Assembly (NCBI GenBank): GCA_035491955.1
Contig: DATJJU010000003.1
Span: 15,306-79,305, forward strand
Length of the DNA: 64,000 nucleotides
Direction: 5' to 3'
Origin: Minisyncoccota bacterium
GTDB taxonomy: Bacteria; Patescibacteriota; Minisyncoccia; Phycocordibacterales; UBA9973
Notes under the pieces: generated by a model
Told to the model about the DNA's origin: nothing
Database searches by the model: none
The model's input: only the letters and a program-made list of their open reading frames with translations
In this document: piece after piece, positions 8,603 through 63,554 of the stretch
Position numbering within the stretch: the stretch's first letter is position 1
Layout: every line of letters begins with the position of its first letter
Position numbers and translations under genes: made by a program

Positions 8603-9504
8603 AATCAATTCTCTCAATCTCAATAATGGCAGCCATCGGCTTATTGATCCTAGCGATCCTTTTGCCCACGCAAACTAATCAAATGGCGCAAAGAGTACTA
8701 GGGGAGATGACCAGTATCGGCAATAGTTCGCTTATAAGCAATCCTGTCGCTACTCTATCGAACAAACTCGCCAGTGCCGTTAATACTCAAACACTAAAGT
8801 CATCCAGTGCTGATAATTCTGTGCTTTCTGCGGCAGATATTATTGATGCTACCAATCAGGAGCGTCTCGATGATGGGCTACCTCCACTGAAGACCAATAA
8901 TGAACTAGCAGCGTCAGCGAAGCTCAAGGTAGAGGATATGATCACCAATCAATATTTTGACCACACCTCTCCTTCAGGCAAGACAGTGGCTGACTTGGGA
9001 CAACAGGTAGGGTATGACTACGTAGTCATGGGCGAGAACCTGGCTCTCGGCGACTTCACGAGTGCTCACGACCTTCTTCAGGCCTGGATGAAAAGTCCTG
9101 GTCATCGCGCCAACATTCTTAATGACACGTACCAAGACATTGGCGTCTATGCCGCACAGGGAATGTACCAGGGTCACATGGTCTGGTTCGCTGTTCAACA
9201 CTTCGGCACAGAGCGCACCGCCTGTCCTCCGCTTGATACAACTCTCAAGACGACTATCGATACACTTAATGCCACCCTCAAGAATGAAGAGGCACAGATC
9301 GAAAGTCTTCGCGCACAGATCGAAGATCCTAACCACCCAACAGGTTCGACATACTCAACGCTCATCAGTAAGTTCAACAGCATGGTCTCTATGTACAACT
9401 CTCAGCTGGTGACATCTCAATCACAGATCAGTTCATACAACAAACAAGTTGTAGCATTCAACAAATGTCTTTCTCAATACCAGACTTCTAAATCAAAAGA
9501 GTAG
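8596..9504 (+). CDS. CAP/SCP/PR1-like domain protein (YkwD-like), N-terminal TM anchor, C-terminal coiled-coil tail
   Basis: CAP motifs NQERLDDGLPPL...HTSPSGKT...GENLALG...AWMKSPGHRANIL; start overlaps the previous stop by 7 nt. Confidence 0.7.
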   Translation: MLKSILSISIMAAIGLLILAILLPTQTNQMAQRVLGEMTSIGNSSLISNPVATLSNKLASAVNTQTLKSSSADNSVLSAADIIDATNQERLDDGLPPLKTNNELAASAKLKVEDMITNQYFDHTSPSGKTVADLGQQVGYDYVVMGENLALGDFTSAHDLLQAWMKSPGHRANILNDTYQDIGVYAAQGMYQGHMVWFAVQHFGTERTACPPLDTTLKTTIDTLNATLKNEEAQIESLRAQIEDPNHPTGSTYSTLISKFNSMVSMYNSQLVTSQSQISSYNKQVVAFNKCLSQYQTSKSKE

Positions 9505-44636: not shown

Positions 44637-45848
44637 TTATGGAAGCTGAGGCATTGGAAGGTTAAGACTTGGGCAGACAATATTGTTTATGTCACGCTTA
44701 GTCGTCTTATAAACATAGCCTGTACCGACAAGATTCGGATTACCGAGATTCTTCCATGGAACCAAGACTTGTACTGATTCCTTTTCTTGGAATTGCTTTA
44801 CTGCTGCAAAGGTCTGAGGTCCATATGAACCATCTATCTTTATATTTGCGTGAATAAAGTAATTGAGGAAAGCCTGCAAGTTTGTTACATTTTGTTTGTC
44901 ATTCTTTGCACCAAGCTTCACATAACTAGTAATGTATTCTCCACAACTGTTTGGGGTGTCTGTACTTGCACCCAAAACCTGGCCTGCAGGTTTGCCGCCC
45001 GTACTTCCTCCAGAAGTACCTCCTGATCCACTACCACCAAGAATTGTGGTAGGAAGAATACCGCTTGAGCCTCCCCCGCCACCGTTACCACCTCCATCTG
45101 ATGGAGTAGTCGCTGGTGTGGTTGGAACATTGAACGCTACACAGTGGTAAGTTGTGCCCGCTACAGGATTTCTAATATATTCGAAGTTGTCATAATTCAA
45201 ACCGTCGGTTTCGCAATAGAATTCAGCACTGTCTGAATTGCTATTATCGCGAGTTGATTCATTGAAGGTGAAAGGAATGTATCCTGTCTGCAATACTTCA
45301 CGTACGTGGTACTGAGAAACAGTATTAGGAAATGGAACAGTAACAGTTGTTGAGCCATTTGCATCGGTAGGACCAAAAGTATTCCAGTCCCCAGATGCCT
45401 CACCAATGAAGTCATTGGCTACATCGGTAGGATTGGTATCCTGGTAACTCCACTGAAATCTCCAATTCGGAGCCAAGTGACAGTGACCATTACTGTTCGC
45501 TACATAATCTGAAGCCGTAGTAGCGGTAATTGATGTGCCGTTTCCAAGATGCGGTGAGTAGTCGTCAGTATCACAAATCACCTTGGTTGCTTCTATGGTG
45601 ATAGTAGGTACAGACGGAGTCTGAGTATCAATATCAGGATTAGAAACATCAGGACTCTGAGTTTCATCTGTATCTGTAGTAATAACAAGATCCGGAACTG
45701 AAGGGGTCTCAGTTACGATAGAAGGCTCAGTGACTACAGGACTCTGCGTATTGTCATCAGCATGTACTACAGTAGCCATTCCTTTGAATAACAAAGAAGC
45801 GCTCACGAGCAACACTAGCATCCCTAACAATAAATGACTTTTTTTCAT
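44637..45848 (-). CDS. Secreted protein with Gly-rich linker and C-terminal peptidoglycan-binding-like (PG_binding_1) domain (start at MKKSHLLLGM with GAGGA RBS)
   Basis: Signal peptide; GGGNGGGGGSSG linker; NLQAFLNYF...GSYGPQTFAAVKQFQ. Confidence 0.6.
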   Translation of the reverse strand: MKKSHLLLGMLVLLVSASLLFKGMATVVHADDNTQSPVVTEPSIVTETPSVPDLVITTDTDETQSPDVSNPDIDTQTPSVPTITIEATKVICDTDDYSPHLGNGTSITATTASDYVANSNGHCHLAPNWRFQWSYQDTNPTDVANDFIGEASGDWNTFGPTDANGSTTVTVPFPNTVSQYHVREVLQTGYIPFTFNESTRDNSNSDSAEFYCETDGLNYDNFEYIRNPVAGTTYHCVAFNVPTTPATTPSDGGGNGGGGGSSGILPTTILGGSGSGGTSGGSTGGKPAGQVLGASTDTPNSCGEYITSYVKLGAKNDKQNVTNLQAFLNYFIHANIKIDGSYGPQTFAAVKQFQEKESVQVLVPWKNLGNPNLVGTGYVYKTTKRDINNIVCPSLNLPMPQLP

Positions 45849-46143
45849 AAAAAATTCCTCAAAACTTAATAAAATAGTGACTATCTGCACACTACATCTC
45901 CTTTCTTATTTTGTCAACTATCTGCGCGTTGAGAGATCTTTTATAAGCATAAAGCAGAAAAGAGCTACAAAAGATACGAAAAAGCACACTGTTCCAAATG
46001 TATCTTCCCGTGGCCATGGGAGTAAATGCGTGAGAGGTAGTGCCAAGGTCGTTGGATGAAAAACTGCATTCTCTGCAATATAAAACCAGCCTGAAAAACA
46101 AAAGAAAAATAAGGTAAATGTAAAAGCCTTTAGAAATCTCATA

Positions 46144-47430
46144 TTAATTCAACCCACTCGAGAGAAAACCTTGCATTGTTTGATAAGCAGGCTTTTGCGA
46201 ATAATCATTTCGAACAAGACCGAAAAAGTTTTCATTAGTATCAGTTGTAGTTCCCCCATCTCTGTAGGTATACCAGAATAGTGGGCCAGCCCAACTATAT
46301 GATTTATAGAGATTTATGGTATCCGTAACCATCTTTGATTGCTGATCTTCACTAAGATACCACTTTGAATCAGGACCATTTGTTGGAGCGCCGTATTCAG
46401 TGATCCATATCTGCTTTGCGCTATCACCATTCGCATTCATTATACTTCGTACACTAGGGTTACCATTACTCATGCCAGCCCATGCATTTGTAGAATTTGC
46501 AGAAGGAAGCGCAGGAAATGTGTACGGATGATAGCCAACTGCATCAAAGTAATTTTTACCACCGTCCTTATAAACACACTGTAAGAAATCTAGAGGAGCA
46601 ATATTAACATTAGTATTAGCAACCTGAGCCAACCCTCCTGTTATGACATACGCGCCCGGGTCAGCCTTCTTAATAGCTGGGTATACAGCTTTGAGTAGAG
46701 TTGTATATGCTCCACAATCTGACTTGGTAGCCCAAAAATCGTAATCATTTTCTTCATTCCAAATCTCCCAGTAATGCATCCCGTAGCTCTTGTAGCGATT
46801 AACTAAAGCTGTAGCAAATGTCGCAAACTGATTCGGATCATTTGGTGGGCAATGAGCGCCTCCAGTACAACCGGCCGTTCGAGCCCATGGCGGAGTGTTA
46901 ATAATAATACCGAGCCCTACAATACCGTGTTTCTTTAATGAGTTTGCAATTCGATCGTACTTACTCCAATCGTATTGTGAAGCAGAGTTTTGTTGTACAA
47001 AACCCCAATCGATGTCATATCGAACAATTTTCACACCCATAGCTTGCATGCCACTTACTTCTTTTTCAAGATCTGTATCATTCAAACCAGTTAGTTGGCT
47101 ACCCATAGCCATGCCTATACGGTGTGGAAGTGGTGCAACAGGAGTATAAAGACCGCCAAGAGGTTTTGTGGCATCGCTGAGGGTAGCTTTGGTACTAGTA
47201 TCAATAGGATTAGGCGTACTAGTATCGATCGCCAATGGTGTAGTATCAGCAGTAGCTGGGTTTTGTGCAATAGGCGCTACTACCGGCATTATTTTAGAAT
47301 TTTTATATATAAGTGCCAAACGATACCCAAAAAAAATAATGGCAAGAAAACATAAAAAAAAGGTTGTATTACGCGCCGCCCTATTCTTTTGAGATGGAAT
47401 GCCGCCTGATTCTGGCTTCTTTAATAACAT
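46144..47430 (-). CDS. Clan GH-A (TIM-barrel) glycoside hydrolase, PslG/GH39-like, membrane-anchored
   Basis: Acid/base HYWEIWNEEN (NEP-type) and nucleophile IWITEYGAP (ITE-G) motifs; N-terminal signal anchor. Confidence 0.6.
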   Translation of the reverse strand: MLLKKPESGGIPSQKNRAARNTTFFLCFLAIIFFGYRLALIYKNSKIMPVVAPIAQNPATADTTPLAIDTSTPNPIDTSTKATLSDATKPLGGLYTPVAPLPHRIGMAMGSQLTGLNDTDLEKEVSGMQAMGVKIVRYDIDWGFVQQNSASQYDWSKYDRIANSLKKHGIVGLGIIINTPPWARTAGCTGGAHCPPNDPNQFATFATALVNRYKSYGMHYWEIWNEENDYDFWATKSDCGAYTTLLKAVYPAIKKADPGAYVITGGLAQVANTNVNIAPLDFLQCVYKDGGKNYFDAVGYHPYTFPALPSANSTNAWAGMSNGNPSVRSIMNANGDSAKQIWITEYGAPTNGPDSKWYLSEDQQSKMVTDTINLYKSYSWAGPLFWYTYRDGGTTTDTNENFFGLVRNDYSQKPAYQTMQGFLSSGLN

Positions 47431-49329: not shown

Positions 49330-50526
49330 CTATTTATTTCTGACTAAAGAAGCTACTTTGTAGAGACGACTTCTTGTGTAGTAGTAATCATAAAACCAGA
49401 TCTTTTCTAGGACCTTACGCCCCTGGCCAGTATGAGGATGAGCAAATGATTTGCTAATGCTTTCCTGTAATGCATCCCGCAATTCCTTGTCTGATTCCAT
49501 TTTATTGAGATCCAATAAATTCTCCATTTGAAATGCTGCACCGTCTTCAGTGTACGTTCTTAGATTTTTTACAACCTGTAAATCTATAGACCGAGGAAAT
49601 GTCTTCGATTGTTCTAAAGTTCCTGCAATATGAAGACCGATCATGGTTCTATTACACTTATCACAAAGGCCGCAGTTAAACTTGCCTCTCTTATTTAAAT
49701 AGCACACACGCAAATTTTCTAAAACAATCTGCTCATGAGCAATATACTTTGTCTTCCCTAACCTGTTTGTTTCTGTACCATCATGATGAAAATTGATAAC
49801 CTCGGTACCCCATAAGCCGTCCAGTTGTAGGTGGGTTCCATTGGGGTACTGTTGATCTTTTGTATATGTCGATGCGATATATACGTTATTGATTTCTTTT
49901 CGCAAAGCCAAACCAAGAGCCGCCAAACAACCTCCGTGCGTATAGTCCCACGTCAATATTGGTTCAATGCAATGACGAACATTGCTTTCTACGGTAATAA
50001 GTTCGATACCTTCATGATCTGCAACATTTTCTACAGTGGCCAATGATCTTTCCCATAAATTCTTATTTCTGAGACTAATGTCATAGCCATTTGCCAATAT
50101 GAAATACTGTATCTTTTGAACAGCGGGATTATTTTTGTTTTTAAGATAGGTATAAAAAGAATCAACACCTCCTGAGAAAAATGACGCCGCTGCAGCAGGC
50201 TTATAGGTATCCTTTTTCAGGCTATTAGCTACAATTTTAATTTTCTTTAATCCAATATTCCAAGAAAAGACAAGCTCCATAGCTTCATGTAATCCTTTAT
50301 AAAGCTGTTCGGATATCTCTCCTTCTATAATAAGATTACTGCCCAACTTCATTGAAGGAATCAATAATGCAGCAGCAAAAGGACTCATATCAAGAGCAAT
50401 AAAGTCAACATATTTTTTATCAAACTTGAAATAAATCTTATCGGGCCCGAATGGACGAATAAAACAATCAGCCATCAGAGTTGCGAATTTTGCATCAATC
50501 TTTAATTGTAGATTGCTAATTTTCAT
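49330..50526 (-). CDS. PP-loop ATP pyrophosphatase superfamily protein (QueC/ExsB fold), candidate N-acetyl-sugar amidotransferase (WbuX/WbpG-like)
   Basis: SFFSGGVDSFYTY PP-loop (SGGxDS) and C-terminal CYLNKRGKFNCGLCDKC Cys cluster; ~398 aa; glycan-cluster context. Confidence 0.45.
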   Translation of the reverse strand: MKISNLQLKIDAKFATLMADCFIRPFGPDKIYFKFDKKYVDFIALDMSPFAAALLIPSMKLGSNLIIEGEISEQLYKGLHEAMELVFSWNIGLKKIKIVANSLKKDTYKPAAAASFFSGGVDSFYTYLKNKNNPAVQKIQYFILANGYDISLRNKNLWERSLATVENVADHEGIELITVESNVRHCIEPILTWDYTHGGCLAALGLALRKEINNVYIASTYTKDQQYPNGTHLQLDGLWGTEVINFHHDGTETNRLGKTKYIAHEQIVLENLRVCYLNKRGKFNCGLCDKCNRTMIGLHIAGTLEQSKTFPRSIDLQVVKNLRTYTEDGAAFQMENLLDLNKMESDKELRDALQESISKSFAHPHTGQGRKVLEKIWFYDYYYTRSRLYKVASLVRNK

Positions 50527-51766
50527 AAATATCTTTTACTGTATAAATAGCCTTATTAGCCTCTTCAATATATCCAGGCAAAACTGTATCTAGATGACGC
50601 AGATAGACTGAGCGTTCTCGCGTAAGACGATCGAACATATCAATAAGGTTGTCAGATTCTACTTTCTTAATATTTACTACCCATTGTTCTAGACCGAGGT
50701 CAGCCATGATGCCTCTGGTTTTGTGCTCGTATTCAATAGCCATGCTTGGCACCTTCGAAGTAAGGGCAAATATAACCGAATGGAAGCGGGTACCAACAAG
50801 GTAATCCAGATCGGCATACATTGCTTTTACAATATGGTGATCATATCGCTCCTTTACTACATACGCTTTATCCTTCTCCTCCATATAACTGTAAACACGC
50901 TTACTGCTCTCTCGATCATCATCTGACTGCAGCTCAACAGTAACCTGAGGAATAAAAATAACAGCGGCATTATACGCGGTCACAATATGGTCCGCTAAGG
51001 CTGCTACTGAACGCTCGTAATGTTCCTGAGCTTTTGAATTGAGCCATGCCCGAACAGTAACACCTACAATCATTTTTTCTTCCGGGATGTGGAATTTTTC
51101 ATGAAGATTGACAGAGGTATTGCTTTGGAAAGCAAAACCGCTATCTACAGACAAAGAAACGTTCTTTTTGATACCCCATTTCTTCAACAACTCAAGCGAG
51201 ATATGTTCTCGCACAATAATTCCATTAAGTCGTTTTACTGCAAAACGAGCCATTCGCTCCTGAAAACGATTTCCGAATGGTCCCACAGACTGGGTATAGC
51301 CGACTGTTTTCTTGCCCAAAATATAAGAGAAGACAAAAGGATGAAGAATGAAGAAAAGCCCAAAGGTGCCCATAAGGCCTTCTTTTCCCCTCACATATCC
51401 GCCGCCAACAGAAATAACGATGTCAGCATCTTCATATAGCTTCACGACTTCTTGAATGGATTTCGGTAAAGGAATATTTACTTTAAACCATCTATAGGAA
51501 AATGCCGTGATAAAGGTAAGTGTAGTGATGTATGCAGCATAGATAGCTTGCAGCACACGGTTTTTATACTGCTCTCTAGCATAATACATAAACGCATGCT
51601 TCATTGTTACTCCGTCAAACGTTTCTCCGGGAGCAAGAGTATCGAGCGTCAATATCGTCATATCAGGATTATCAAAACCGCGCTTGATATCCGATATCAA
51701 AACACTGAGGAGCGCAGCGTCTCCTTTATTATCGTTTGAGTAAACATGTGAGATAAGTATTTTCAT
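50516..51766 (-). CDS. Polysaccharide pyruvyl transferase family protein (CsaB/WcaK-like)
   Basis: N-terminal YSNDNKGDAALL (GNxGDxAxL-type) motif; ~416 aa. Confidence 0.65.
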   Translation of the reverse strand: MKILISHVYSNDNKGDAALLSVLISDIKRGFDNPDMTILTLDTLAPGETFDGVTMKHAFMYYAREQYKNRVLQAIYAAYITTLTFITAFSYRWFKVNIPLPKSIQEVVKLYEDADIVISVGGGYVRGKEGLMGTFGLFFILHPFVFSYILGKKTVGYTQSVGPFGNRFQERMARFAVKRLNGIIVREHISLELLKKWGIKKNVSLSVDSGFAFQSNTSVNLHEKFHIPEEKMIVGVTVRAWLNSKAQEHYERSVAALADHIVTAYNAAVIFIPQVTVELQSDDDRESSKRVYSYMEEKDKAYVVKERYDHHIVKAMYADLDYLVGTRFHSVIFALTSKVPSMAIEYEHKTRGIMADLGLEQWVVNIKKVESDNLIDMFDRLTRERSVYLRHLDTVLPGYIEEANKAIYTVKDIYEN

Positions 51767-51772: not shown

Positions 51773-54079
51773 TTAGTGATAAATTTGTGAACCTCCACTG
51801 TTATAAATAAGGTTTTTATTGTTTTTAATAAATTCCATTGGATAATTAAAAGTAATCAGATCATTTTTATATTGGAATGACGCTATGCCAGTCATAATAT
51901 TATTCGTACTAATGTATACATATCCCTTTGGGTCAATTGTTTCTGGAAACACGGCCGTATTTTCAGAGCTCATACCTGCAAAAGATTCTAAGCGAAGATT
52001 CGCTTGAGCATCTGCTTCAACAGGATCGTCGTAATTTCTATCATTCAAAATCCAATGAGCTCCGGCTATTTCCGAATCATGAATATAGAGTCCCTGCATA
52101 GTACTTGGAGGTTGATTCAAGGTAATATGAATCACTCCTCCCGTATAATAATCAACCAGACCCGTTGTTGATAAAAATACTACCGATAGGACACAAGCAA
52201 TTACGAGTTCATTTCGTTTAAAATATTTCGTCAAATTAATAGCCCCTACAATAGCTACAGTACTCAGGAAAAGGAACATCTGAAGATATAATCTGGTGAG
52301 ATTATATTGCTGCTGCAGGTACGGAACCGCAACCATCAATACAATAAGGGCGCACCCGCTGACACTAAGAACAATAAGCTGGTATTCCTTATTGGACCTT
52401 GTTTTAGAGAAACCTTTATATAAAAAGACTAATCCAGCCAAAGGAAATACCGCGATCGCCATAATCTTAGCTGTGTTTGCTATAAAAGCAAGTGCTTTCG
52501 ACAGAACCTCAGGGAGCATTTTTTGAGCGTGTACAGCTGAATCTACGGGGTAGGATGGATAGCTAACAGTCAGAGAATCAGGATAAAATTGATAGTAATA
52601 TGTCTTAATAGCATTCTGTTTTGCTTCCTCTATTGTATCGATCGTATTCTTCGGACCGACAATGTTTGCTACTCCGTTTTTTGATACGCCTGATGAAAAT
52701 GACGGTTGTGAGGATGTAACGATTTCAGATTCTGTAATAGGTGCATTCTCTGTTGCAGGCTTCATAACCGTACCTTTATTTGTTATAAACTCTGTAACCT
52801 TTCCAATAGTTCGAGTGATGGGTACCTGCCATATAAACAGCATTGTTACAGCAAGAACAATAAATACCGGCTTGAACACGGAGGACTGATCTTTAAAAAG
52901 ACTGATCTTTTTTGAAATATATGAAAACAGTGATGCTACTACCAGCAAAATAATTGCCACATAGGCAGTTGAGTAGTGAGACAAAACAATGCCCATAAAA
53001 CTAATTCCCACCAATATATTACGCGTTACTTTTTTCAGATTTTTATCAAGAAGCACTAGCAACAATAGCAAGAAAAAAGGGAAAGCATACTCTTGTCTTA
53101 TAAGCGCTGGCATTTGTTCAAAAAACCATGTTTGCGATAGAAGTAAAAATGCAGAAAGGAAAGCAGAGATGCTAGTGCTTACATATCGCTTTGCAAACAC
53201 ATATACCATAACAGGAGAAAGAGCGAAGAAGATCTGGAACAGGAATTTAAATACATATTCTCCGGAAATATGCGTTAGTTGAACAAGTATGGTTGGCAAT
53301 ATCGTAATACTAAGACATGCATTATAGTCCAGCCCTGCATAATAAGACGCGTGCCACATAAGATGCTGGAGCGTTGTTTGAAACACTTCATACTCCTGAT
53401 TGATATCCCATCCTAATATATGATTGCTTCTGAGAGAGTACATGAGAAGCAAAGAGAGGCTGATTGTGTAGAGCGCTACAATATAAACGCTCTCTTTAAG
53501 ACTTTTATTCCAAAATGCCAGAGCGATAACATAGACAGCTATTGCGGCAATCATTACGACTGTTATCGTATTACTGCCATTATTGTTTAAACGCTCTGCT
53601 CCTAGCCATGCGAGTATGGGAAAAATGAAAGCTATGGCTAAGAATATTCGACTTATCATATTTCCAACTTGGAACTTTACTGTAAGAGTAACGTTCTTCT
53701 GAAAAAAATATATGAAAAGCGAAAGCCCTAAAATAATAACGTCAAAAAATACTACGAGCGGAATTTTTGCCAGAGGGTGATGAATACCAAATAAAGGTAA
53801 TAGAAAATTGGCTATCACCCCCCCTAAGAGTACGAAGCCGAAACCTGTAAGAAGAGCATAGACAATGTATTGAGCAGTATTATCAGAGGGTATATTCAGT
53901 ATCACTGACAACAATAAACCGGTTAAGCCGAAAAGGCCCACTAGAACAATCGGAACTGTAATCCATAAAGGTACAGAGGAAACAAGCACTACGACAGTCA
54001 TGATCGCGATCAAATAAATCGCTACAAACAGAAGCCTCTTATTTGTCAGTATTAGATTATTCCCTCCTCTCTCTTCCAT
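51773..54079 (-). CDS. Large polytopic membrane protein, paralogue A (GT-C-fold / DUF2206 / YfhO-like architecture; family unassigned)
   Basis: About 16 hydrophobic helices, ~100-aa central loop, ~110-aa C-terminal soluble domain; shares GWDINQEYEVF, ACLSITILPT, LSHYSTAYVA and C-terminal NNKNLIYNSGGSQIY motifs with 54096-56471. Confidence 0.5.
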   Translation of the reverse strand: MEERGGNNLILTNKRLLFVAIYLIAIMTVVVLVSSVPLWITVPIVLVGLFGLTGLLLSVILNIPSDNTAQYIVYALLTGFGFVLLGGVIANFLLPLFGIHHPLAKIPLVVFFDVIILGLSLFIYFFQKNVTLTVKFQVGNMISRIFLAIAFIFPILAWLGAERLNNNGSNTITVVMIAAIAVYVIALAFWNKSLKESVYIVALYTISLSLLLMYSLRSNHILGWDINQEYEVFQTTLQHLMWHASYYAGLDYNACLSITILPTILVQLTHISGEYVFKFLFQIFFALSPVMVYVFAKRYVSTSISAFLSAFLLLSQTWFFEQMPALIRQEYAFPFFLLLLLVLLDKNLKKVTRNILVGISFMGIVLSHYSTAYVAIILLVVASLFSYISKKISLFKDQSSVFKPVFIVLAVTMLFIWQVPITRTIGKVTEFITNKGTVMKPATENAPITESEIVTSSQPSFSSGVSKNGVANIVGPKNTIDTIEEAKQNAIKTYYYQFYPDSLTVSYPSYPVDSAVHAQKMLPEVLSKALAFIANTAKIMAIAVFPLAGLVFLYKGFSKTRSNKEYQLIVLSVSGCALIVLMVAVPYLQQQYNLTRLYLQMFLFLSTVAIVGAINLTKYFKRNELVIACVLSVVFLSTTGLVDYYTGGVIHITLNQPPSTMQGLYIHDSEIAGAHWILNDRNYDDPVEADAQANLRLESFAGMSSENTAVFPETIDPKGYVYISTNNIMTGIASFQYKNDLITFNYPMEFIKNNKNLIYNSGGSQIYH

Positions 54080-54095
54080 ATATCACTCTTAGATG

Positions 54096-56471
54096 CTAAC
54101 GGTATACTCGTGACCCTCCGTTGCTATAGACAAGATTCTTATTGTTATTCAAGAAATCCATCGGGAAGCTGTAGTACACGACATAGCCATTAATGATTTC
54201 AAGAATGTTTCCTGTTTTAACATTGTCGTAATTCAGATACACATATGAGTCTTTTTTTGTTGTTTCCGGCAGTAGCTCGATATATGAAGTAACACGGCCG
54301 TACGCAAGCATCTTAATATCCGAAAAGTGCGCGGCCTGAATAGGAAGTCTAATGGCGTCTGCTTTAGCCAGCCAGTCTGCAGAAGCTACTTCTTGCGGAT
54401 GAGTATAATAAGAGTCGTAATACAAGCCGTCATTATTAAGCGGCAGTAATGGTCGTGCTCCTCCAGTAATCTGAGGCAATAATCCGGATAGAATGATAAA
54501 GAAGAATAATACTGTTATTACTGATGCCGCCAATTGTTTTCTAGCATTTTTAGTAAACATTCCTATGATAGCCATAAGGCCGAGAAGTATAGGCAAACAT
54601 AGGTAAATCAAATTCTGTTGAAATAGGCGCAAAAGCCCATAGTCAATGGCGTTTGCAGGAAGCACAGTCTGTCCGACAAGAACAACGATGCCGGCAAAAG
54701 AGATTGAAATAAACTCTACAGGCACTTTGTGCAAAATCTTTTCTTTAAAGCTATAGCCGAGCCCCAATCCTATAAGCCCCACAAGGAGAAGGAGTTGCAG
54801 GATCTTTGCATACGCCTGCTTTATAAATGCAAAAAATGTAGTGAGACTGACACGAACCACTCCTTGTACAACATGTCCCACTTTTGTCAGAGGAGCGATA
54901 TATTCCGATACAGGCTTCGTTGGGTAGCTTTCAGTTAATGCGAGCGGGAAAAATTCTGACTGCTGCTGATTAACTTTTTGATTTTTTATACCCTGATCGA
55001 GGAATTGATTGAATAATACTTGAGGACTTGGTGTTTGAGAGCTAAGGATACTGTATTTTGCCGGGCCAGTTTGCTCATCCAAGCTAAAAGGCTTGGTCAA
55101 GCTCGTACCGATCTGTTTAATGGTATTAATAAAACTAGTTGAAGTCTTGGTAATAAATGTTGACCATACCACCATTATCACAAGCAAGCCGATAACAAAT
55201 ATGAATTTCAGAGCACTCTTTTTTTCATAGACTTCCTTATTACCGACTTTGTCCGTGAGTCGTACAAGCCAGCGAGGGCGCTTACGGGTCATAATAAAGC
55301 GCAAAATCTTATTAATAAGATACGTGGCGATCAGCAAAGGTACTGCGATGTAAGAAGTAGAATAGTGAGAAAATACCATACCGGTTCCCAGGATAAAAAG
55401 AATCAGCATTTTTACTTTTTCACTGACATACTCTTCACTAAACAGTACAAAAACCATTAAGCCGAAGAAAAGAAAGGCTATTCCCTGTCGATTAAGGAAT
55501 GCCATATCGACAGTGAATGTTGGGAAGGTAATATAGATAAACGCTGCTAAAAATGCCAATTTTTCAGAAACATATTGCTTAGAAATATAGTACACCACTA
55601 CGACAGGCAGAGCCCCGACAAACTGAATGAAGAATTTGAAGATATATGCATCACTTGCAACGTGCATAAGATTCTGTAGATAAGTCGGAAAAATGGTAAG
55701 ACTGAGACATGCCATGTACGGATCTTGATATAAGGACATCAGCCAGTGATGGGCATCGTTGGTTAATGTGAAGACATGATACTCAAGCAAGATATCATGA
55801 CCGGTAATGAACCATCCCCGCATAGAGTTCATAAGGAGGAATGACAAAGCCATCATGTATAAAATGACCGGCTTTACAGGCTCATCAATTTCTTTCCTCG
55901 TAAGAACTACGACAGGCACAAGGATAACGACAAGCCCCAGTGCCGCCATCGTCAAAATATTTGACTGGCCGTTATTAAGAAGCAGAGCACCTAGCACAGA
56001 CAGTACAGGAAGAAGCACTGATATAAAAATAAGGCTGATGCTGAGGCCGTTCAATCGCGGTAAACGAAGCTCGAAATCTGTTTCAAATATTCTATTGAGA
56101 GCAAACAAGATAAAAATGATTGCATCAAACGTGATAACCAACGGCAAAACACTCAAGGGCATTTGAATGCCTACTAAGGGCAGCACTGTGTTGATTATCA
56201 AGCCGAAGAACATGAGCATAAAAATACTCAATGCAACACTGAATGCGACGCCAAGCATGAATGGCATTTTTCTTTTTGTTAAGAATGGCAATAAGAAGAG
56301 GCCGGGAGTAATAATGATATAAAGAAAAGCTAAGAATTGAGCAATATAGGCTAAGGCAGGCTGATGAATCTGAAAGAGTGCTACCAGGTTTACCAAAGGA
56401 GCAGCCGCAATAAAATAGGCCAACGAGGTCTGGAGGGAGTACTGTGGTTTTGTATCGTTTTCGTATTCCAT
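54096..56471 (-). CDS. Large polytopic membrane protein, paralogue B of 51773-54079
   Basis: Same architecture and motifs (GHDILLEYHVF, ACLSLTIFPT, FSHYSTSYIA, NNNKNLVYSNGGSRVY). Confidence 0.5.
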   Translation of the reverse strand: MEYENDTKPQYSLQTSLAYFIAAAPLVNLVALFQIHQPALAYIAQFLAFLYIIITPGLFLLPFLTKRKMPFMLGVAFSVALSIFMLMFFGLIINTVLPLVGIQMPLSVLPLVITFDAIIFILFALNRIFETDFELRLPRLNGLSISLIFISVLLPVLSVLGALLLNNGQSNILTMAALGLVVILVPVVVLTRKEIDEPVKPVILYMMALSFLLMNSMRGWFITGHDILLEYHVFTLTNDAHHWLMSLYQDPYMACLSLTIFPTYLQNLMHVASDAYIFKFFIQFVGALPVVVVYYISKQYVSEKLAFLAAFIYITFPTFTVDMAFLNRQGIAFLFFGLMVFVLFSEEYVSEKVKMLILFILGTGMVFSHYSTSYIAVPLLIATYLINKILRFIMTRKRPRWLVRLTDKVGNKEVYEKKSALKFIFVIGLLVIMVVWSTFITKTSTSFINTIKQIGTSLTKPFSLDEQTGPAKYSILSSQTPSPQVLFNQFLDQGIKNQKVNQQQSEFFPLALTESYPTKPVSEYIAPLTKVGHVVQGVVRVSLTTFFAFIKQAYAKILQLLLLVGLIGLGLGYSFKEKILHKVPVEFISISFAGIVVLVGQTVLPANAIDYGLLRLFQQNLIYLCLPILLGLMAIIGMFTKNARKQLAASVITVLFFFIILSGLLPQITGGARPLLPLNNDGLYYDSYYTHPQEVASADWLAKADAIRLPIQAAHFSDIKMLAYGRVTSYIELLPETTKKDSYVYLNYDNVKTGNILEIINGYVVYYSFPMDFLNNNKNLVYSNGGSRVYR

Positions 56472-56472: not shown

Positions 56473-58803
56473 TTATGGGTATATAGACAACAAGGCTTTT
56501 CCTACAACATCCCAATCGTAATGAGTAAGAACGAATTCCCTGCCCGCTGCAGACATTTCATCATATTGCATATTTTTATACAAAATGTCAAGTATAGTGT
56601 CGGCAAAAGCTTCTGGTGCGTCCGCTATTGCGATACCGTTATTTTTCTCTATTCCTTCTGCTCCTTTTGATGCAGAAACTACAGGCAAGCCAGCAGCCAT
56701 GTACGTTAATATCTTAAGTCTGGTGCCGGAGCCGTAGCGAACAGGACAAATACCAATTGCTGACTCAGCAAGATAAGGACGGATATCTTCCACAAAGCCT
56801 GTGCCTTTTATGGAGTCGTCTTGAACACCTTCTTTTTTAAGCCACTCAGGTGTTGCGCCAATAATAGTAGTTGATATTGCGGAATCTTTTTTCTTTAAAT
56901 GGGGGTAAATTTCATGTATGTAAAATTTCACTGCATCAGCATTCGGAGGATATTTTACCCCTCCGATAAACAGTATCTTTTTATTGTTATCCTTCTTTTT
57001 TACTGGAACAAACTCTTTGCAGTCGACTCCATTAGGAACGATGAACACATTCTTATTAATTTGTTTAAAATAGTCTGCATCATTATTTGAACATGCAATA
57101 ACAATATCGGCTTGCTTCGTAGCTTCTATTTCAACTTTCTGCAAATGAGGTACAAGCCACTTCCCTACTATTCTTTTTGGTGATGAAAACAGTTCCAATG
57201 ACTGTTCAAATAATGCTCCTTCAATATTATGAGTATCAAGAACTATTTTCACGCCTTGTTTCTTAAGCCAAGGAATATATTTTCGGATACAGTAATATCC
57301 GCTGATCTGTTCAATATGGACTACATCAGGTAATTTTTCCTGACAAGCGGCATAAAAAATTTCTCCCACCCCGCTTATTCTGAAATTCTCTATTGCGGGT
57401 TGCACACGCTTGAACAAAATAGCCTTTAAAAAAGTTAGTGGTGTTAATTTCTTTTTTTGTATAGGATGAACAGTGATATTCGGCTCTCGTTTTAAAGCAT
57501 CCACAGCTTCGCTATTATCGGCAATACAGAAAAGATCGATAGTAGTATGACTTTTTTTAGAAAGCTGTTTAAGCAAATGGAAGTTTCTAATTTCAGCTCC
57601 TCCACTGTTTCGAGGAGTGTTAGTAGATACAATATAAATTGTTTTTTCCTTGACATCTTTTTTTACCGCAGAAGATATGCCCAAGAAAGCTTCAGTTTCT
57701 GCTGCTAATATAGACCAATTATATTTTTCTTTAGCGTATACCTGAGCATTTTTTGATTTATCATATATATCTGCATCACCCAACGCATAGAGAATTGTCT
57801 TTTCGAGGTCAGTACGATTGTTTGACTGGGCAATATATCCAATTCTTCCATGATCCACAAAAGAAGGCAGATCGCCGATATTGCTGACAAGAGGTACGAC
57901 CCCTCGAGCCATGTATTGAGAGACTTTCATATTGCTTGCCGCTAATACTGTCCGCTCATTCGGCATATAACTATAGCCAATATCGCCGGGAGAAAAAGTA
58001 TCCTTCACATCAGTGAGGGCAAGCCATCCTGTAAATATAGTATTCTTGGTAATTCCAAGAATACCGGCTTTTTCTTTAAAATAATTAAGATATGTTCCGT
58101 TGCCCATTATTAAAATTTTTATGTCTGGGTATTGCGCGATGACATTAGGAAGAACATCGAACAATGGTTCAAGAATATTTTTTCTATTAATAGCACCCAT
58201 GAATAAGATTCTTTTACTATGCATTTTTTCTTTCACGGGAGTAAACCACTCATCACTGACGCCGTTCGGTAATATATGCACAGGCTTTTTAGGAAAGGAT
58301 TCTTTATACATGCTGTAAAGAAAACTTGAAGCAGCTATAATCTTATCAGCATAATATGCCGATATTTTTTCTGACCATGCCACAAGTACGCGCTGATACC
58401 ATGGATGACCTTCGATTTTCATTACTTCACTACCCAAATCATCCATATCTAATACTACGGATGTGCCGTAAAAAAGCTTACCGAGCAAGCCTACAGCGCT
58501 TATCGGCGTAGGCTTGTAGATATAAATAAGGTCTGAGCGTTTTCGTAGTATTTTCCACGAAGCACTAATAAGATAAGGAATGAGATTTATTAGAGGGTTT
58601 CGTGTTTTAAATTGAAAAGGTTGATAGATCTTTACTCCATTAAGTGTCGTGATTTTTTCATATGAAAAATTATTATACTTGTCGGCACTAGGAACTATAA
58701 TGGTCACATCATGACCATTCTTGTGCAGCTCTGTTGCAAGTTGCACAATGCGATAACTAAAATTGCTGCGGATACTCCCCGATCCTAAAAAAGTAATCTT
58801 CAT
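56473..58803 (-). CDS. Tandem double-domain GT4 (group 1) glycosyltransferase
   Basis: Two GT-B modules, each ending in an E-x7-E-like region (EKYNWSILAAE; second copy after aa ~400); 776 aa. Confidence 0.7.
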   Translation of the reverse strand: MKITFLGSGSIRSNFSYRIVQLATELHKNGHDVTIIVPSADKYNNFSYEKITTLNGVKIYQPFQFKTRNPLINLIPYLISASWKILRKRSDLIYIYKPTPISAVGLLGKLFYGTSVVLDMDDLGSEVMKIEGHPWYQRVLVAWSEKISAYYADKIIAASSFLYSMYKESFPKKPVHILPNGVSDEWFTPVKEKMHSKRILFMGAINRKNILEPLFDVLPNVIAQYPDIKILIMGNGTYLNYFKEKAGILGITKNTIFTGWLALTDVKDTFSPGDIGYSYMPNERTVLAASNMKVSQYMARGVVPLVSNIGDLPSFVDHGRIGYIAQSNNRTDLEKTILYALGDADIYDKSKNAQVYAKEKYNWSILAAETEAFLGISSAVKKDVKEKTIYIVSTNTPRNSGGAEIRNFHLLKQLSKKSHTTIDLFCIADNSEAVDALKREPNITVHPIQKKKLTPLTFLKAILFKRVQPAIENFRISGVGEIFYAACQEKLPDVVHIEQISGYYCIRKYIPWLKKQGVKIVLDTHNIEGALFEQSLELFSSPKRIVGKWLVPHLQKVEIEATKQADIVIACSNNDADYFKQINKNVFIVPNGVDCKEFVPVKKKDNNKKILFIGGVKYPPNADAVKFYIHEIYPHLKKKDSAISTTIIGATPEWLKKEGVQDDSIKGTGFVEDIRPYLAESAIGICPVRYGSGTRLKILTYMAAGLPVVSASKGAEGIEKNNGIAIADAPEAFADTILDILYKNMQYDEMSAAGREFVLTHYDWDVVGKALLSIYP

Positions 58804-58807: not shown

Positions 58808-59962
58808 TTATTTAATAAGAGAATTATATATTTCTATATACTTTCCAGTCTGTATCTCCCAGCTGAACCCTTGAGCTTTTAACGACCCCGCATCTCCTAA
58901 TGCCTGAGCAAAAGCATGATCACTTATTATTTTTTCTATAGCCTCAGCTAGAGCTTGTGGATTTTTCGGTTCAACAATCAGACCTGTAACACCGTTATCG
59001 ATGACCTGAGGAGTACCGCCAATATTAGTACCAATAATCGGACGACCTGATGCCATAGCTTCGACCAGTGACACACTAAACGCCTCTGAGTCAGAGGTAG
59101 ATGGCAAAACCATTACATTCATTCTCTCAAACGCCTTCACAAGCTCTGCCCCATATTGAGGACCAGGAGTAATAAAATTGTCTTGTATATTTAAATCTTT
59201 TGCCTGTTGCGTATAGAGACCGAGTGCATCGCCTCCTCCGACGATCTCTAGTGTCGCGGAAGGTCTTTTTTTAATCACAATAGCCATTGCCTTAATAAGA
59301 TATTCGATACCTTTCCACATTGAAGAAAGCTCTACTCTGCCAACAAAAGCTACACGTTCATTATTCGGCACCGCAGTCTTTTTAAATCGTTCCAAATCCA
59401 CTCCGGTAGGAATAAAAGAGACCTTGTTTATAAATTGAGGAAATACGACAGGAATAAAGTTTCGAGCCACTGCCACAATATGATCAGCGCGCTGAAGGAG
59501 CTTTTTCAAAAAATATAATTCGTAGACCCCTATAATAAGATCAAGAATGAAATTTCCCTTACGCATACTGCCAGAGTGATATGTCACGACCAAAGGAATA
59601 TGCTTTTTATGAGCTACTGCAGCAGCAACATCCGCCATAAATGGCACGGGTGAATGCGTGTGAACAAGACTAGGCTTTTCTTCATCAAAAATCTTTGTGA
59701 TCATTTTTGACCAAGCAAAATTAATAGGCGTATTCGATAAACGAAACGCGATAGGAAGACGGTGCACTGTCATGCCGTCAATCATATCTTTGCGATAGCC
59801 TTTTCCATCATAGTTACTGGAGATAATGCTGACCGTATAGTTTCCGCTCTCTTGCAGCATCTTTGCAGTGGTATAAGCAATAGTTTCGAGACCGCCCACT
59901 TTTGGGTAAAAATATGATGCAACCACTGTAACATGAGGTTTTTTTATTATTGATTCATTCAT
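58808..59962 (-). CDS. GT4 (group 1) glycosyltransferase
   Basis: N-terminal HVTVVASYFYPKVGGLE and C-terminal SDSEAFSVSLVEAMASGRPII GT4 motifs. Confidence 0.8.
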   Translation of the reverse strand: MNESIIKKPHVTVVASYFYPKVGGLETIAYTTAKMLQESGNYTVSIISSNYDGKGYRKDMIDGMTVHRLPIAFRLSNTPINFAWSKMITKIFDEEKPSLVHTHSPVPFMADVAAAVAHKKHIPLVVTYHSGSMRKGNFILDLIIGVYELYFLKKLLQRADHIVAVARNFIPVVFPQFINKVSFIPTGVDLERFKKTAVPNNERVAFVGRVELSSMWKGIEYLIKAMAIVIKKRPSATLEIVGGGDALGLYTQQAKDLNIQDNFITPGPQYGAELVKAFERMNVMVLPSTSDSEAFSVSLVEAMASGRPIIGTNIGGTPQVIDNGVTGLIVEPKNPQALAEAIEKIISDHAFAQALGDAGSLKAQGFSWEIQTGKYIEIYNSLIK

Positions 59963-62226
59963 ACATATAACTCTTCTAATTTGCTAATAGTTGCCTCCCA
60001 ACTGTATGGTTCTGAAAAATGCTCGTAATACTCGCCAGGTTTTCTTGATGCCAATACTTTTTTAATTGTATCAGCAAGCGCCTCGGCATTTAAATCAGAT
60101 ATCATGCCATTATCATTATTGATAATAAGATCTTTTGCTGCATTATGCTTGGCGTTGACTGTTACCACCGGCAAGCCTATGGCGTTGGCTTCGATTACAG
60201 TAATTCCGAATCCTTCACGATCAGAAGGAAGCACAAACACCTTAGAGGCTTTCATTAATGCATACACGTCTTCTTGCTTATCTAAGAAACCAGTAAAAGT
60301 TACCGCATCACTGATATTCAAACTGTCTGACATTTTTTCTAGATATTCTTTTTGAGGACCATCACCCACAATATACGCCTTTATGGCTGGAGAATCTTTT
60401 TTTATCTCCGCTATAGCATGAAGCAAGGTGCCCACATTCTTATGAGGTAATAATCTTCCGGCAAAAATAATATCTGACTGAGTACTCGGTAGTATTTTTT
60501 TCATAAAAGAAAGATCTAACGCATTTGGAATAGTTACAACACGATTTTTTATACCCAAAATATTTTTTAACTCCGCAGTAGTATGATCTGATACTGAAAT
60601 TATACTATCAGGCAACGTGGCGCTGATTTTTTCAATAAAATACGCTATGGAACCGAAAGTAAAACCAAGATATTCCCTCCAGTATTTCTTTCCCCATACT
60701 TCATGCCAAGTAGCTATCATTTTCTTTCTCTTAAGCATACAGACAAATTTTGTAACAAGTAGCACCGTATGAGGAATATGATCAACATCAAGAATATCGA
60801 ATGATTTTGTAAGAAGCTTAAATGCGCTCAATGAGAAAAATAGTGCCTGCTTTAAAGATCTTCGATTGCCTATATATAAAGGATAATAAGAGCTTATCGC
60901 AGATAATGTAACTCCCTGATCTTGAATGGTATATGGGCCCTTCCACCACTTCATACAATAGATCGTGACATCATAGCCTTCTTTCGCCAGTTGTATCGTC
61001 AGATCATATAATCTTTTCTCTTTTCCTCCTTTGTTAAATTGGTACACGGCGTCAGAAACAAACGCCAATTTCTTAGGGGGCTTTTGGCCAGCATCTGAAT
61101 ACACGCGCTCTAGTTTTGAGATAATAGCATTCCAATTAAAATATTCATTAACATACTGTTTTGAGTATTCTCCCATTTTCTGCAGGCGTGTTTCATCGAA
61201 AACAATTTCTCTTATAGCGCCTTGAACGCTTTCATCTGTGGGATTCTTAATAAGATACATCATCTCCCTATCGAGTTTATAGTCCTTATACCCTTCATCG
61301 TCAGATGTAATAATAGGTAAACCGCATGCCATAGCCTCTTGAATAGCAAGAGGAAACCCTTCACTCTCCGATGGAAGAATAAAAATATCGGCAGCTTGAT
61401 ATACTTCCGCCATTTCCGAAGGCTGTATTTTTCCTAGGAAAACCAGATTATCGCTACTCTCCTGAATAGGAGTAGCTCCGGCAAACGCAATTTGATATTC
61501 TGAACTCTCAGCAGATAAAACTTTGGTAAAGCCCTTTTTGGGTACAAATCTTCCCACAAAGAGGATAACCTTTTTATTACTATCCAAGCCAAATTTTTTA
61601 CGCAATATCTTTTTCTCTTCTACTGAAACAGGCTTAAAAAGTTTTTCATTTACGCCATTGATAAGCATAACGATCTTTTTATCGGAAACTCCTCGTCTTA
61701 TTAAGAATTTTTTTACCGACTGGTTATACACCATGATACGATTGCTAAATTTAAAAATTATTTTACCCGTTGTGACATATACGAATTTCTCAATTAGTAC
61801 AACAATGCGACTCGGGTGCTTGATGAGTGCAATATGTTCAGTTAACACTAATGGCTTTTTAAACAACCGAGCGAATAGTGCGGCAAAAAACGAACTCATA
61901 TAAAACGCATCGTGAATATGCACGACATCGGCTTTCTTTACTTCGCGTCTTAGTACTGGCAGTAATCGAAGGGAGAAAATCGGGAATGGTGCTCCCCATT
62001 TTTCTGAGAAGTTCAGTGCTTTGATTCTGATGACACGTATTCCATCAACAATAGCACTTTTCTCATCTGCATTAGTCTCACTAGTTACTACAGTAACCGT
62101 ATACCCCGAAGCAACCAAGCGCTTCGCTTGGTTATATGCCACCATTCCTACACCAGTTACATGAGGAGGAAAATGATGAGTGACTATAAGAATGCTCTTT
62201 TTAGACTCATTCATATTGCTACTCAT
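59959..62226 (-). CDS. Tandem double-domain GT4 (group 1) glycosyltransferase
   Basis: Two GT-B modules with ESEGFPLAIQEAMACGLPII and DREGFGITVIEANAIGLPVV. Confidence 0.7.
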   Translation of the reverse strand: MSSNMNESKKSILIVTHHFPPHVTGVGMVAYNQAKRLVASGYTVTVVTSETNADEKSAIVDGIRVIRIKALNFSEKWGAPFPIFSLRLLPVLRREVKKADVVHIHDAFYMSSFFAALFARLFKKPLVLTEHIALIKHPSRIVVLIEKFVYVTTGKIIFKFSNRIMVYNQSVKKFLIRRGVSDKKIVMLINGVNEKLFKPVSVEEKKILRKKFGLDSNKKVILFVGRFVPKKGFTKVLSAESSEYQIAFAGATPIQESSDNLVFLGKIQPSEMAEVYQAADIFILPSESEGFPLAIQEAMACGLPIITSDDEGYKDYKLDREMMYLIKNPTDESVQGAIREIVFDETRLQKMGEYSKQYVNEYFNWNAIISKLERVYSDAGQKPPKKLAFVSDAVYQFNKGGKEKRLYDLTIQLAKEGYDVTIYCMKWWKGPYTIQDQGVTLSAISSYYPLYIGNRRSLKQALFFSLSAFKLLTKSFDILDVDHIPHTVLLVTKFVCMLKRKKMIATWHEVWGKKYWREYLGFTFGSIAYFIEKISATLPDSIISVSDHTTAELKNILGIKNRVVTIPNALDLSFMKKILPSTQSDIIFAGRLLPHKNVGTLLHAIAEIKKDSPAIKAYIVGDGPQKEYLEKMSDSLNISDAVTFTGFLDKQEDVYALMKASKVFVLPSDREGFGITVIEANAIGLPVVTVNAKHNAAKDLIINNDNGMISDLNAEALADTIKKVLASRKPGEYYEHFSEPYSWEATISKLEELYV

Positions 62227-63007: not shown

Positions 63008-63454
63008 TTAATTGTTATTAGGGATAAGAAAATCAATACTCTGATTGAGATTTTTCAAAGTAACTTGAACCATTCCTTCTTCGTCTGTAAGAGTTGAAGT
63101 ATGCGAAACAATAACTGTTCTTGTTTCATCATCTGCGAGAGTCACAGTTCCTTTAAGAATGGAGAGGGTTTGACCATTTTTATATACAAAATTTACAGTA
63201 TAGGGATATGTAGTTTGTATTCCTTCAACATTATGAATATTAAAAGAAAATGTTATTTTTTGTCCCTTACTTATTGATTTAGGAAGATTCTCTGAATTAT
63301 TAAAATAGAGTTCGGTATAGGGTTCTAACTTGGGAGTAAAATTAAGACGATTGAGAGCATCTGATATTTGAGTATTAAATACCAAGATAGCAACTGCAAG
63401 CGCAACAATTACTACTGCTGGGATAAGTATTTTTTTGTGTACTGGATTCTCCAT
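63008..63454 (-). CDS. Hypothetical membrane-anchored protein at the head of the glycan operon
   Basis: N-terminal TM anchor; ~148 aa. Confidence 0.4.
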   Translation of the reverse strand: MENPVHKKILIPAVVIVALAVAILVFNTQISDALNRLNFTPKLEPYTELYFNNSENLPKSISKGQKITFSFNIHNVEGIQTTYPYTVNFVYKNGQTLSILKGTVTLADDETRTVIVSHTSTLTDEEGMVQVTLKNLNQSIDFLIPNNN

Positions 63455-63554
63455 ATAAATAAGACGTAAAGAAATAATCAATATTTCATAAGTATTTCAT
63501 AAACGCCACCCTACCATATTATAGTTAATACGTCAATAGTTCCCTATTGGAGTG

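Follow-up and report, generated by a model that had tools for sequence, protein, structure and literature searches.

The subject of this analysis is a pair of adjacent genes, here called DUF2206-A and DUF2206-B (A and B for short), which lie in a stretch of 64,000 nucleotides (nt) from a Minisyncoccota bacterium (assembly GCA_035491955.1, contig DATJJU010000003.1, positions 15,306 to 79,305); this whole stretch is referred to as the window, and all coordinates are given relative to its first letter. The two genes are encoded on the same strand with a spacing of 16 nt, and their products are large polytopic membrane proteins. The genes and their shared motifs are collated below (residue numbers are those of the respective protein; x stands for any residue).

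51773..54079, minus strand: DUF2206-A, 768 amino acids, putative accessory paralogue with the same architecture as B
53381..53413, minus strand: GWDINQEYEVF of A (motif GxDIxxEYxVF at A223), with D225 and E229
53291-53320: equivalent of ACLSxTIxPT in A (at A254)
52955-52984: equivalent of SHYST in A (at A366)
51779-51823: equivalent of the C-terminal NNKNL..GGS..Y motif in A
54096..56471, minus strand: DUF2206-B, 791 amino acids, candidate core enzyme of the gene cassette, with predicted GT-C fold
55770..55802, minus strand: GHDILLEYHVF of B (motif GxDIxxEYxVF at B224), with the proposed catalytic acidic pair D226/E230, where the first juxtamembrane helix of the outer loop begins
55683..55712, minus strand: ACLSLTIFPT of B (motif ACLSxTIxPT at B254), second short helix of the outer loop
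55344..55373, minus strand: FSHYSTSYIA of B (motif SHYST at B367), with H369/Y370 at the outer end of transmembrane helices TM11/TM12
54102..54146, minus strand: C-terminal beta-strand motif NNKNLVYSNGGSRVY of B (NNKNL..GGS..Y), in which K778 and Y782 are largely conserved

Alignment of A with B by BLASTP gave 30% identity over 720 amino acids (E=3e-75), and the proteins can be regarded, from this similarity, as true paralogues. A preliminary description of the window had called them tandem paralogues that share four motifs and lack catalytic signatures of the WWDYG type. The four motifs were recovered by a regular-expression check at equivalent positions in both proteins, and neither WWD, WW nor DxD occurs in the sequence of A or B. 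Adjacency and paralogy were thus borne out; A did not arise from B by a recent duplication, however, and belongs to a separate deep clade. All residues that are invariant in B were found to be kept in A (D225, E229, K278, R328, H368, Y369, and R596).

Family membership and predicted fold

Both proteins were assigned to Pfam family PF09971 (DUF2206), with scores of 78.3 bits for A and 72.9 bits for B against a gathering threshold of 35.6 bits. The same family was found above threshold in 35 of 35 aligned homologues and, as a precomputed assignment, on nearly all of 240 listed homologues. An identical copy of B is listed at NCBI under the name 'DUF2206 domain-containing protein [Candidatus Paceibacterota bacterium]', and the labels at JGI read likewise. 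The JGI contig with the identical B also encodes an adjoining DUF2206 product of 768 amino acids; a homologue search with A returned a best entry of 54% identity and no identical one, probably owing to a limitation of the search. The preliminary description had given the pair no family assignment, which does not hold, and had listed DUF2206 among families of similar architecture; the relationship is real, but resemblance is too weak a word for it, since A and B are actual members. DUF2206 is therefore a family that is already catalogued and functionally uncharacterised, and the pair is not an unassigned novelty. The entry PF09971 reads 'predicted membrane protein', with no function attached to the family. 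Its model matches chiefly the last third of the proteins (profile positions 110-368 on residues ~530-790), and the acidic-loop region, which is taken here as the putative catalytic one, lies outside its coverage. Literature searches for DUF2206 or PF09971 returned nothing useful on the family, and a search for GT-C enzymes in Patescibacteria found nothing. NCBIfam gave no match for A or B.

Among other profiles, PMT_2 (PF13231, ArnT/PMT-like) was matched by B with 20.8 bits, under its gathering threshold of 26.1 bits, and was not matched by A. Weak PMT_2 matches at E<=1 were obtained for 18 of 35 family members (best 2.6e-7), mapping to residues 281-392 of B, so that the similarity extends over TM8-TM12; the gathering score was reached by two DUF2206 fusion proteins (26.3-26.7 bits). 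This link probably reflects a distant relationship and not family-level membership. No match to Pfam STT3 was found in A, B or the 35 homologues, none to YfhO at E<=1 in the same set, and none to Wzy_C or the O-antigen ligase families at E<=1 among the 35 members.

Alignments of 35 and 40 homologues were built, and both structures were predicted. The AlphaFold models were obtained with a mean pLDDT of 87.4 and a pTM of 0.90 for B, and with a pLDDT of 89.5 and a pTM of 0.90 for A. When the models were compared with the PDB by Foldseek, the top 13 matches of B and the top 15 matches of A were all GT-C glycosyltransferases, at probabilities of 0.99-1.00; both models matched AftA (8if8), STT3, PglB, AglB, ArnT (5f15), DPY19 (7zlg), and ALG9, the E-values for AftA being 5e-5 and 2.7e-5 across the two models. 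Matches to transporters all had probabilities of <=0.16 with either model, and on these values an identity as transporter or flippase was rejected. The GT-C-like architecture proposed earlier, for which a Foldseek comparison of this kind had been suggested as a check, is thus upheld for both proteins, and homology to a transporter, named at the time as grounds for abandoning the proposal, did not appear. The TM-scores to GT-C structures were modest (0.27-0.47) at 9-14% sequence identity, which indicates a relationship at the level of the fold, with no close solved relative, and when the family alignment was searched as a profile against the PDB sequences, nothing was matched even at E<=10.

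The models support the view that A and B are integral-membrane enzymes of the GT-C fold, resembling the GT-C_A type. Two more specific identities were also considered. A canonical oligosaccharyltransferase (STT3/PglB/AglB, family GT66) was rejected because WWDYG, DxD, and an STT3 match are missing. A Wzy-, WaaL- or SEDS-type enzyme was rejected as well, there being no family match and, among the Foldseek matches listed for A and B, no WaaL, SEDS or RodA structure. Wzy, O-Lig, and SEDS proteins form other GT-C clans, with diphosphate donors (PMC10920833).

Predicted topology and conserved residues

Seventeen transmembrane helices, with the N-terminus inside and the C-terminus outside, were derived from the AlphaFold models together with hydropathy. 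The preliminary description had given about 16 helices, a large extracytoplasmic loop of ~100 amino acids, and a C-terminal soluble domain; the loop and the domain were found again, and the helix count is corrected to 17. The predicted architecture of B (amino acid positions) is as follows.

B 1-198: N-terminal module of six transmembrane helices
B 199-274: TM7 and the first outer loop, with D226/E230
B 275-440: TM8-13
B 441-542: outer loop of 102 amino acids, predicted extracytoplasmic
B 543-661: TM14-17
B 662-791: C-terminal alpha/beta domain of 130 amino acids, predicted extracytoplasmic

The orientation was fixed by two lines of evidence, of which the positive-inside rule was decisive. Lysine and arginine in the short loops of B number 22 inside and 1 outside (family means 20.9 and 3.3), with the helices taken from the model. 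In fusion proteins, a cytoplasmic GT2 or GT4 domain was located N-terminally to DUF2206 in 13 of 13 cases examined, and because GT2 and GT4 enzymes that use nucleotide sugars must be cytoplasmic, the N-terminus of DUF2206 must be inside.

Conservation was determined over 370 homologues. D226 and E230, which sit in the loop after TM7, are invariant (370/370); S257 and P262 are conserved in 369 of 370, and K279, R328, H369, Y370, W436, and R615 in at least 364 of 370. Conservation of the motifs is far beyond chance, and their absence from orthologues, which would have spoken against the earlier proposal, was not observed. In the predicted topology all invariant polar residues (D226, E230, K279, R328, H369/Y370, and R615) lie either on the outer face or within a helix in its outermost fifth, and the GxDIxxEY loop falls on the outer face, as had been anticipated, within the outside segment 217-274. 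This segment contains short helices (225-240, 251-254, and 260-269) between two transmembrane helices, and the PMT_2-like region begins directly after it. The first extracytoplasmic loop of GT-C enzymes normally follows TM1 (PMC11127046). In the model, loop 217-274 resembles that loop, and the first six helices (~195 residues) would accordingly be an N-terminal addition to a GT-C core. The invariant residues may cluster into a single pocket, in which D226/E230 are the proposed catalytic acidic pair and K279, R328, and R615 (plus H369/Y370) could bind a lipid phosphate.

In the models the pair has the overall fold of the solved GT-C_A enzymes (Foldseek probability about 1.0), basic residues that are conserved near the outer leaflet, and an extracytoplasmic C-terminal domain; the outward loop, in which juxtamembrane helices come after an invariant acidic residue, is a putative counterpart of their acidic loop. 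There are also differences: GT-C enzymes typically have 7-13 transmembrane helices (PMC11127046), whereas DUF2206 has 17, about six of them added before the loop, and the acidic loop accordingly follows TM7 and not TM1. From the GT-C enzymes described so far, DUF2206 also differs by motifs of its own (GxDIxxEY, ACLSxTIxPT, and SHYST) in place of WWDYG or DxD, and by a conserved small partner with a single transmembrane helix.

Operon, neighbouring genes, and spread of the cassette

A and B are part of a nine-gene operon on the minus strand, in which neighbouring genes are separated by -29 to +16 nt; the order is small membrane protein, GT2, double GT4, single GT4, double GT4, B, A, pyruvyl transferase, and an uncharacterised protein of 398 amino acids. 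The glycosyltransferase-rich operon of the preliminary description is confirmed, the GT2 being joined by five GT4 modules. The remaining genes of the operon and its surroundings are listed below.

63008..63481, minus strand: first gene of the operon, small protein with one N-terminal transmembrane helix and a beta-rich ectodomain of ~110 amino acids
62227..63036, minus strand: GT2 of 269 amino acids, AglJ/DPMS/PpgS-like (Pfam GT2), proposed primer of the pathway
59959..62226, minus strand: double-module GT4 of 755 amino acids (domain scan)
58808..59962, minus strand: single-module GT4 of 384 amino acids (domain scan)
56473..58803, minus strand: double-module GT4 of 776 amino acids, ending 1 nt before B; of the type that is fused to DUF2206 elsewhere (proteins P0250, P0308, and P0239)
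50516..51766, minus strand: polysaccharide pyruvyl transferase of 416 amino acids, CsaB/WcaK-like
49330..50526, minus strand: last gene of the operon, uncharacterised protein of 398 amino acids
47364..49328, plus strand, convergent with the operon: Wzx-type flippase (Polysacc_synt/MOP) fused to a C-terminal S-adenosylmethionine-dependent methyltransferase (residues ~498-635)
46144..47430, minus strand: PslG-like glycoside hydrolase of the GH5/GH39 type, 428 amino acids (Pfam; best PDB match PslG, 2.4e-22)
44637..45890, minus strand: protein with a PG_binding_1 domain, following the PslG-like hydrolase

The GT2 gave PDB sequence matches only to the Pyrococcus DPMS (5mlz, 1.2e-11) and to ArnC (9hwj). 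Its best NCBIfam matches were AglJ (1.7e-56, below the equivalog cut-off), a haloarchaeal dolichyl-phosphate hexose transferase, and the mycobacterial PpgS; judged by these matches, it is of the polyprenyl-phosphate sugar synthase type. Around residues 107-111 it reads DGDNT, with Thr in place of the Gln of DxDxQ, the motif with which DPMS and WpsA-type synthases are described (PMC10821137).

For the small membrane protein, alignment with its orthologues in two annotated loci from other genomes (L001, 2829-3287; L002, 2267-2722) indicated that the start is probably an ATG ~27 nt (9 codons) downstream of the listed TTG. The conserved motifs TELYF, F.IHN.EG..TYPY, and Q.IDFL were recognised, and the single family signal, DUF1616, was sub-threshold (26.1 versus 31.6 bits). 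Possible roles for the protein are those of an accessory subunit, a regulator of chain length, or an activator of the GT2.

The 398-amino-acid protein, whose gene overlaps that of the pyruvyl transferase by 11 nt, was matched by nothing in Pfam, NCBIfam or the PDB; its sequence includes a CxxC..C cluster (CGLCDKC). With the listed TTG as its start, the flippase gene overlaps that of the hydrolase, and the true start probably lies further downstream; flippase and methyltransferase are separate genes in L001. In Pseudomonas, PslG is the hydrolase encoded by the Psl exopolysaccharide operon. The hydrolase, followed by a second one with a PG-binding domain, forms a pair that also trails the cassette in L001 and L002, which suggests that the product is processed at the cell wall. 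Further secreted or wall-associated proteins were located near the glycan cluster: two with CAP (cysteine-rich secretory protein) domains (8596..9504, plus strand; 43539..44570, minus strand), and one that combines a Laminin_G_3/ConA-like lectin domain with PG_binding_1 (15232..16707, minus strand). Neither phosphoglycosyl transferases (PF00953 and PF02397) nor domains of LCP ligases, Wzy or ABC exporters were found in the window's open reading frames that were scanned or in L001 and L002. A scan for promoters and terminators gave counts no higher than those in shuffled sequence.

The spread of the family was determined by a profile search of 1.84 billion cluster representatives (clusters at 50% identity), which returned 5,688 members at E<=1e-3 and 3,394 at E<=1e-30, mostly as full-length matches. 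The long members are fusions of DUF2206 with one to three GT4 modules or with a GT2. Where a GT2 is fused, it belongs with the chain-extending enzymes (MftF/EpsD/AglG-like) and not with the synthases, and on this ground its assignment as donor synthase was rejected. Two or three GT4 modules followed by a full DUF2206 were found in P0239 (1980 amino acids), P0266 (1783 amino acids), and P0250, P0308, and P0318 (~1520-1555 amino acids). Judging from their domain order, the longest fusions would carry a cytoplasmic assembly line and an outer transferase on a single polypeptide.

A scan of the GTDB species representatives, with the ACLSxTIxP pattern and similarity to B as the basis of selection, gave 227 loci. 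The best 80 of these were examined as six-frame open reading frames over up to ±10 kb by searching with the window proteins; many of them end early at contig ends, and typing by phmmer did not cleanly separate the GT2 subtypes. According to the record titles, the 227 loci belong mostly to Patescibacteria (Paceibacteria, Saccharimonadia, Kaiser-, Adler-, and Yonathbacteria), Actinomycetota (Streptosporangiaceae, Acidimicrobiia, Pseudonocardia, and Thermoleophilia), and Chloroflexota (Ktedonobacteria and Chloroflexia). Five loci (L003, L013, L018, L066, and L076) are cassettes like those of the candidate phyla radiation (CPR) in metagenome-assembled genomes (MAGs) titled Flavobacteriaceae or Gammaproteobacteria, which are possibly mis-binned or mis-assigned, so that the taxonomic spread has to be read with care. 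The cassette components occurred in the best 80 loci as follows.

GT4: 74
Flippase: 66
GT2: 62 (30 at >=200 bits)
Small membrane protein: 54 (adjoining the GT2 in 46)
PslG-like hydrolase: 52
Pyruvyl transferase: 19
398-amino-acid protein: 12, after the pyruvyl transferase gene

The usual gene order is small membrane protein, GT2, GT4s, DUF2206, optionally pyruvyl transferase and the 398-amino-acid protein, then flippase and hydrolase. A second DUF2206 gene was present in only 4 of the 80 loci, besides L001 and the window, and it was always of the A type: such proteins share 42-43% identity with A and about 29% with B, and the product of the gene upstream is 51-57% identical to B. In a neighbour-joining tree, which is rough and approximate, the A-type proteins form a deep clade of their own outside the cassette-core enzymes of all three phyla, with which B groups. 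The clade split and the identities together point to B as the core enzyme and A as an ancient accessory paralogue. A recent tandem duplication was rejected, as A-type and B-type proteins are separate clades conserved across genomes.

A pathway model and its alternatives

The established part of the model consists of family, fold, topology, residue conservation, and gene context. The best explanation for the pair, to which a probability of about 0.6 was given, is that A and B are outward-facing transferases of the GT-C_A type in a polyprenyl-monophosphate glycan pathway, B acting as the core enzyme and A in a second transfer. Most likely, they carry out the outer-face step of a surface-polysaccharide pathway that is conserved across three bacterial phyla. 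The GT2 of the synthase type and the flippase encoded in the same locus suggest, by analogy, that the donor used by A and B is polyprenyl-phosphate-linked. The preliminary description had proposed a glycan polymerase, a ligase or a lipid-linked sugar transferase within a glycosyltransferase-rich operon, and as a class this is supported by both fold and context.

The donor, the acceptor, the roles of the residues, and the way in which A and B share the work would be as follows. At the inner face of the membrane, the AglJ/DPMS-like GT2 would load the first sugar onto a polyprenyl monophosphate; the five GT4 modules would then extend the glycan, with the pyruvyl transferase and the methyltransferase decorating it, and the Wzx-type flippase would export the lipid-linked oligosaccharide. 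At the outer face, B would bind the lipid phosphate through K279, R328, and R615 (with H369/Y370), D226/E230 would activate the acceptor hydroxyl, and the glycan would be moved en bloc to the growing chain, in the role of a Wzy-like polymerase, or to the final acceptor, while the 102-amino-acid loop and the C-terminal domain would hold the acceptor. A second, different transfer (attachment or addition of a branch) would be performed by A, and the PslG-like hydrolase would trim or release the polymer.

Three known systems provide the comparison. The lactococcal polysaccharide pellicle (PSP) pathway is the closest in logic and gene content (WpsA/B, WpsC-F, WpsG, WpsH/I, and WpsJ): a DPMS-like GT2 (WpsA/B) primes the C55 monophosphate, glycosyltransferases extend the chain, Wzx-type WpsG flips it, and two GT-C-fold proteins of the cluster have been proposed to polymerise and attach the polysaccharide (PMC10821137). 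The likeness is one of logic and gene content; the small partner has one transmembrane helix and an ectodomain here, as against three helices in WpsB, and most DUF2206 cassettes have one GT-C protein where the lactococcal cluster has two. In the Agl pathway of Haloferax volcanii (AglJ, AglG/I/E, and AglB; AglD/AglR/AglS), the priming of dolichyl phosphate is the task of AglJ, to which the GT2 is closer than to any other named protein; glycan transfer is carried out by AglB, and the last mannose comes from dolichyl-phosphate mannose through AglS (PMC3871713). A glycan on a polyprenyl monophosphate and two outward-facing transferases that act in sequence would be common to both systems (PMC3871713). 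Agl, however, relies on a true oligosaccharyltransferase of the STT3 family with a protein acceptor, whereas A and B are devoid of oligosaccharyltransferase motifs and the cassette holds polysaccharide-type genes. With the Wzx/Wzy-dependent Psl system of Pseudomonas, the cassette shares GT4 and GT2 enzymes, a Wzx-type flippase, and a PslG-like hydrolase encoded together; in contrast to Wzx/Wzy operons, no phosphoglycosyl transferase, Wzy or O-antigen-ligase family protein was found in the scanned loci. By analogy with these systems, the DPMS-like GT2, the operon content, and the failure to find a phosphoglycosyl transferase fit a polyprenyl-monophosphate-primed, Wzx-dependent pathway with GT-C transferases.

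The alternative with the greatest weight, still unlikely, is a three-component decoration system, in which the GT2 would do no more than make a polyprenyl-phosphate monosaccharide and, after its export by the flippase, each DUF2206 enzyme would add single sugars to a glycan made elsewhere, following the logic of GtrB/GtrA/GtrC, ArnC/ArnT, PpgS/Rv3779, GacI/GacK/GacL, and AglD/AglR/AglS. Such schemes are widespread (PMC11127046), the GT2 resembles DPMS, ArnC, and PpgS, and most of the matching GT-C_A enzymes (AftA, ArnT, and DPY19) use monosaccharide donors; the A-type gene, which adjoins an additional GT2 in L001 and L065, would suit a decorating enzyme. Five GT4 modules would be left, however, without a primer, an exporter or a polymerase of their own in the cassette: no phosphoglycosyl transferase or ABC transporter was found in the scanned loci, and there is usually one flippase, which is of the Wzx and not of the GtrA type. 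En bloc transfer is favoured over decoration because nothing else was found in the cassette to prime, export or polymerise what the GT4 modules make, because the flippase is Wzx-type, and because DUF2206 occurs repeatedly as a fusion with GT4 or GT2 enzymes that extend chains, and not with the synthase-type GT2, which ties it to the main glycan.

A transfer of the flipped glycan to proteins (S-layer proteins or pilins) by DUF2206 as a non-canonical oligosaccharyltransferase, like AglB with the dolichyl-monophosphate glycans of Euryarchaeota, was judged improbable, and less probable than decoration. It would explain the presence of STT3, PglB, and AglB among the best structural matches and the closeness of the GT2 to AglJ, the primer of the Haloferax N-glycan (PMC3871713), and a single GT-C protein per cassette would suffice for it; yet WWDYG, DxD, and a Pfam STT3 match are all missing, and polysaccharide systems are where a PslG-like hydrolase and a CsaB/WcaK-like pyruvyl transferase are typically encountered. 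A polysaccharide is favoured over a protein N-glycan on account of these two enzymes, and the five GT4 modules together with the hydrolase are more in keeping with a polymer than with a short N-glycan. Least probable is that A and B are not transferases at all but transporters, flippases or scaffolds, whose likeness to GT-C enzymes is a general similarity of helical bundles. The low TM-scores and the lack of a sequence match to any solved structure would agree with that, but transporters reached probabilities of only <=0.16 against 0.99-1.00 for 13-15 GT-C enzymes with two independent models, the invariant acidic pair with basic and aromatic residues at the outer leaflet is the GT-C pattern, PMT_2 matches were obtained in half of the family members tested, and the cassette already contains a dedicated flippase.

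Beyond the proposal of outward-facing GT-C_A-type transferases, a broader and distinctly more tentative hypothesis can be formulated, which we consider possible but rather doubtful. In an undescribed, widespread, monophosphate-based surface-polysaccharide pathway of single-membrane bacteria (Patescibacteria, Actinomycetota, and Chloroflexota), a GT-C_A enzyme with an extra module of six transmembrane helices might polymerise the repeat units and replace both the phosphoglycosyl transferase and Wzy of the classical pathway; an AglJ-like GT2 would prime, Wzx would flip, the small partner with a single transmembrane helix would assist, and in Paceibacteria the A-type protein would attach or branch the product.

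The assignment of DUF2206 to the GT-C class, with an outward-facing candidate active site and a seven-part cassette, turns a family of membrane proteins into a testable enzyme, and its value lies in the conservation of the cassette across three phyla together with the clarity of that candidate site. If the model is confirmed, DUF2206 would probably found a new glycosyltransferase family, and the assembly of repeat units on a polyprenyl monophosphate without a phosphoglycosyl transferase would extend beyond lactococci and archaea. The cassette also occurs in MAGs of Actinomycetota and Chloroflexota, and family members are found in genomes named Nocardioides and Actinocorallia, which may allow experiments. 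Little is understood of the envelopes of CPR bacteria and of the surfaces by which they attach to hosts; the DUF2206 step probably builds or anchors a surface glycan in them.

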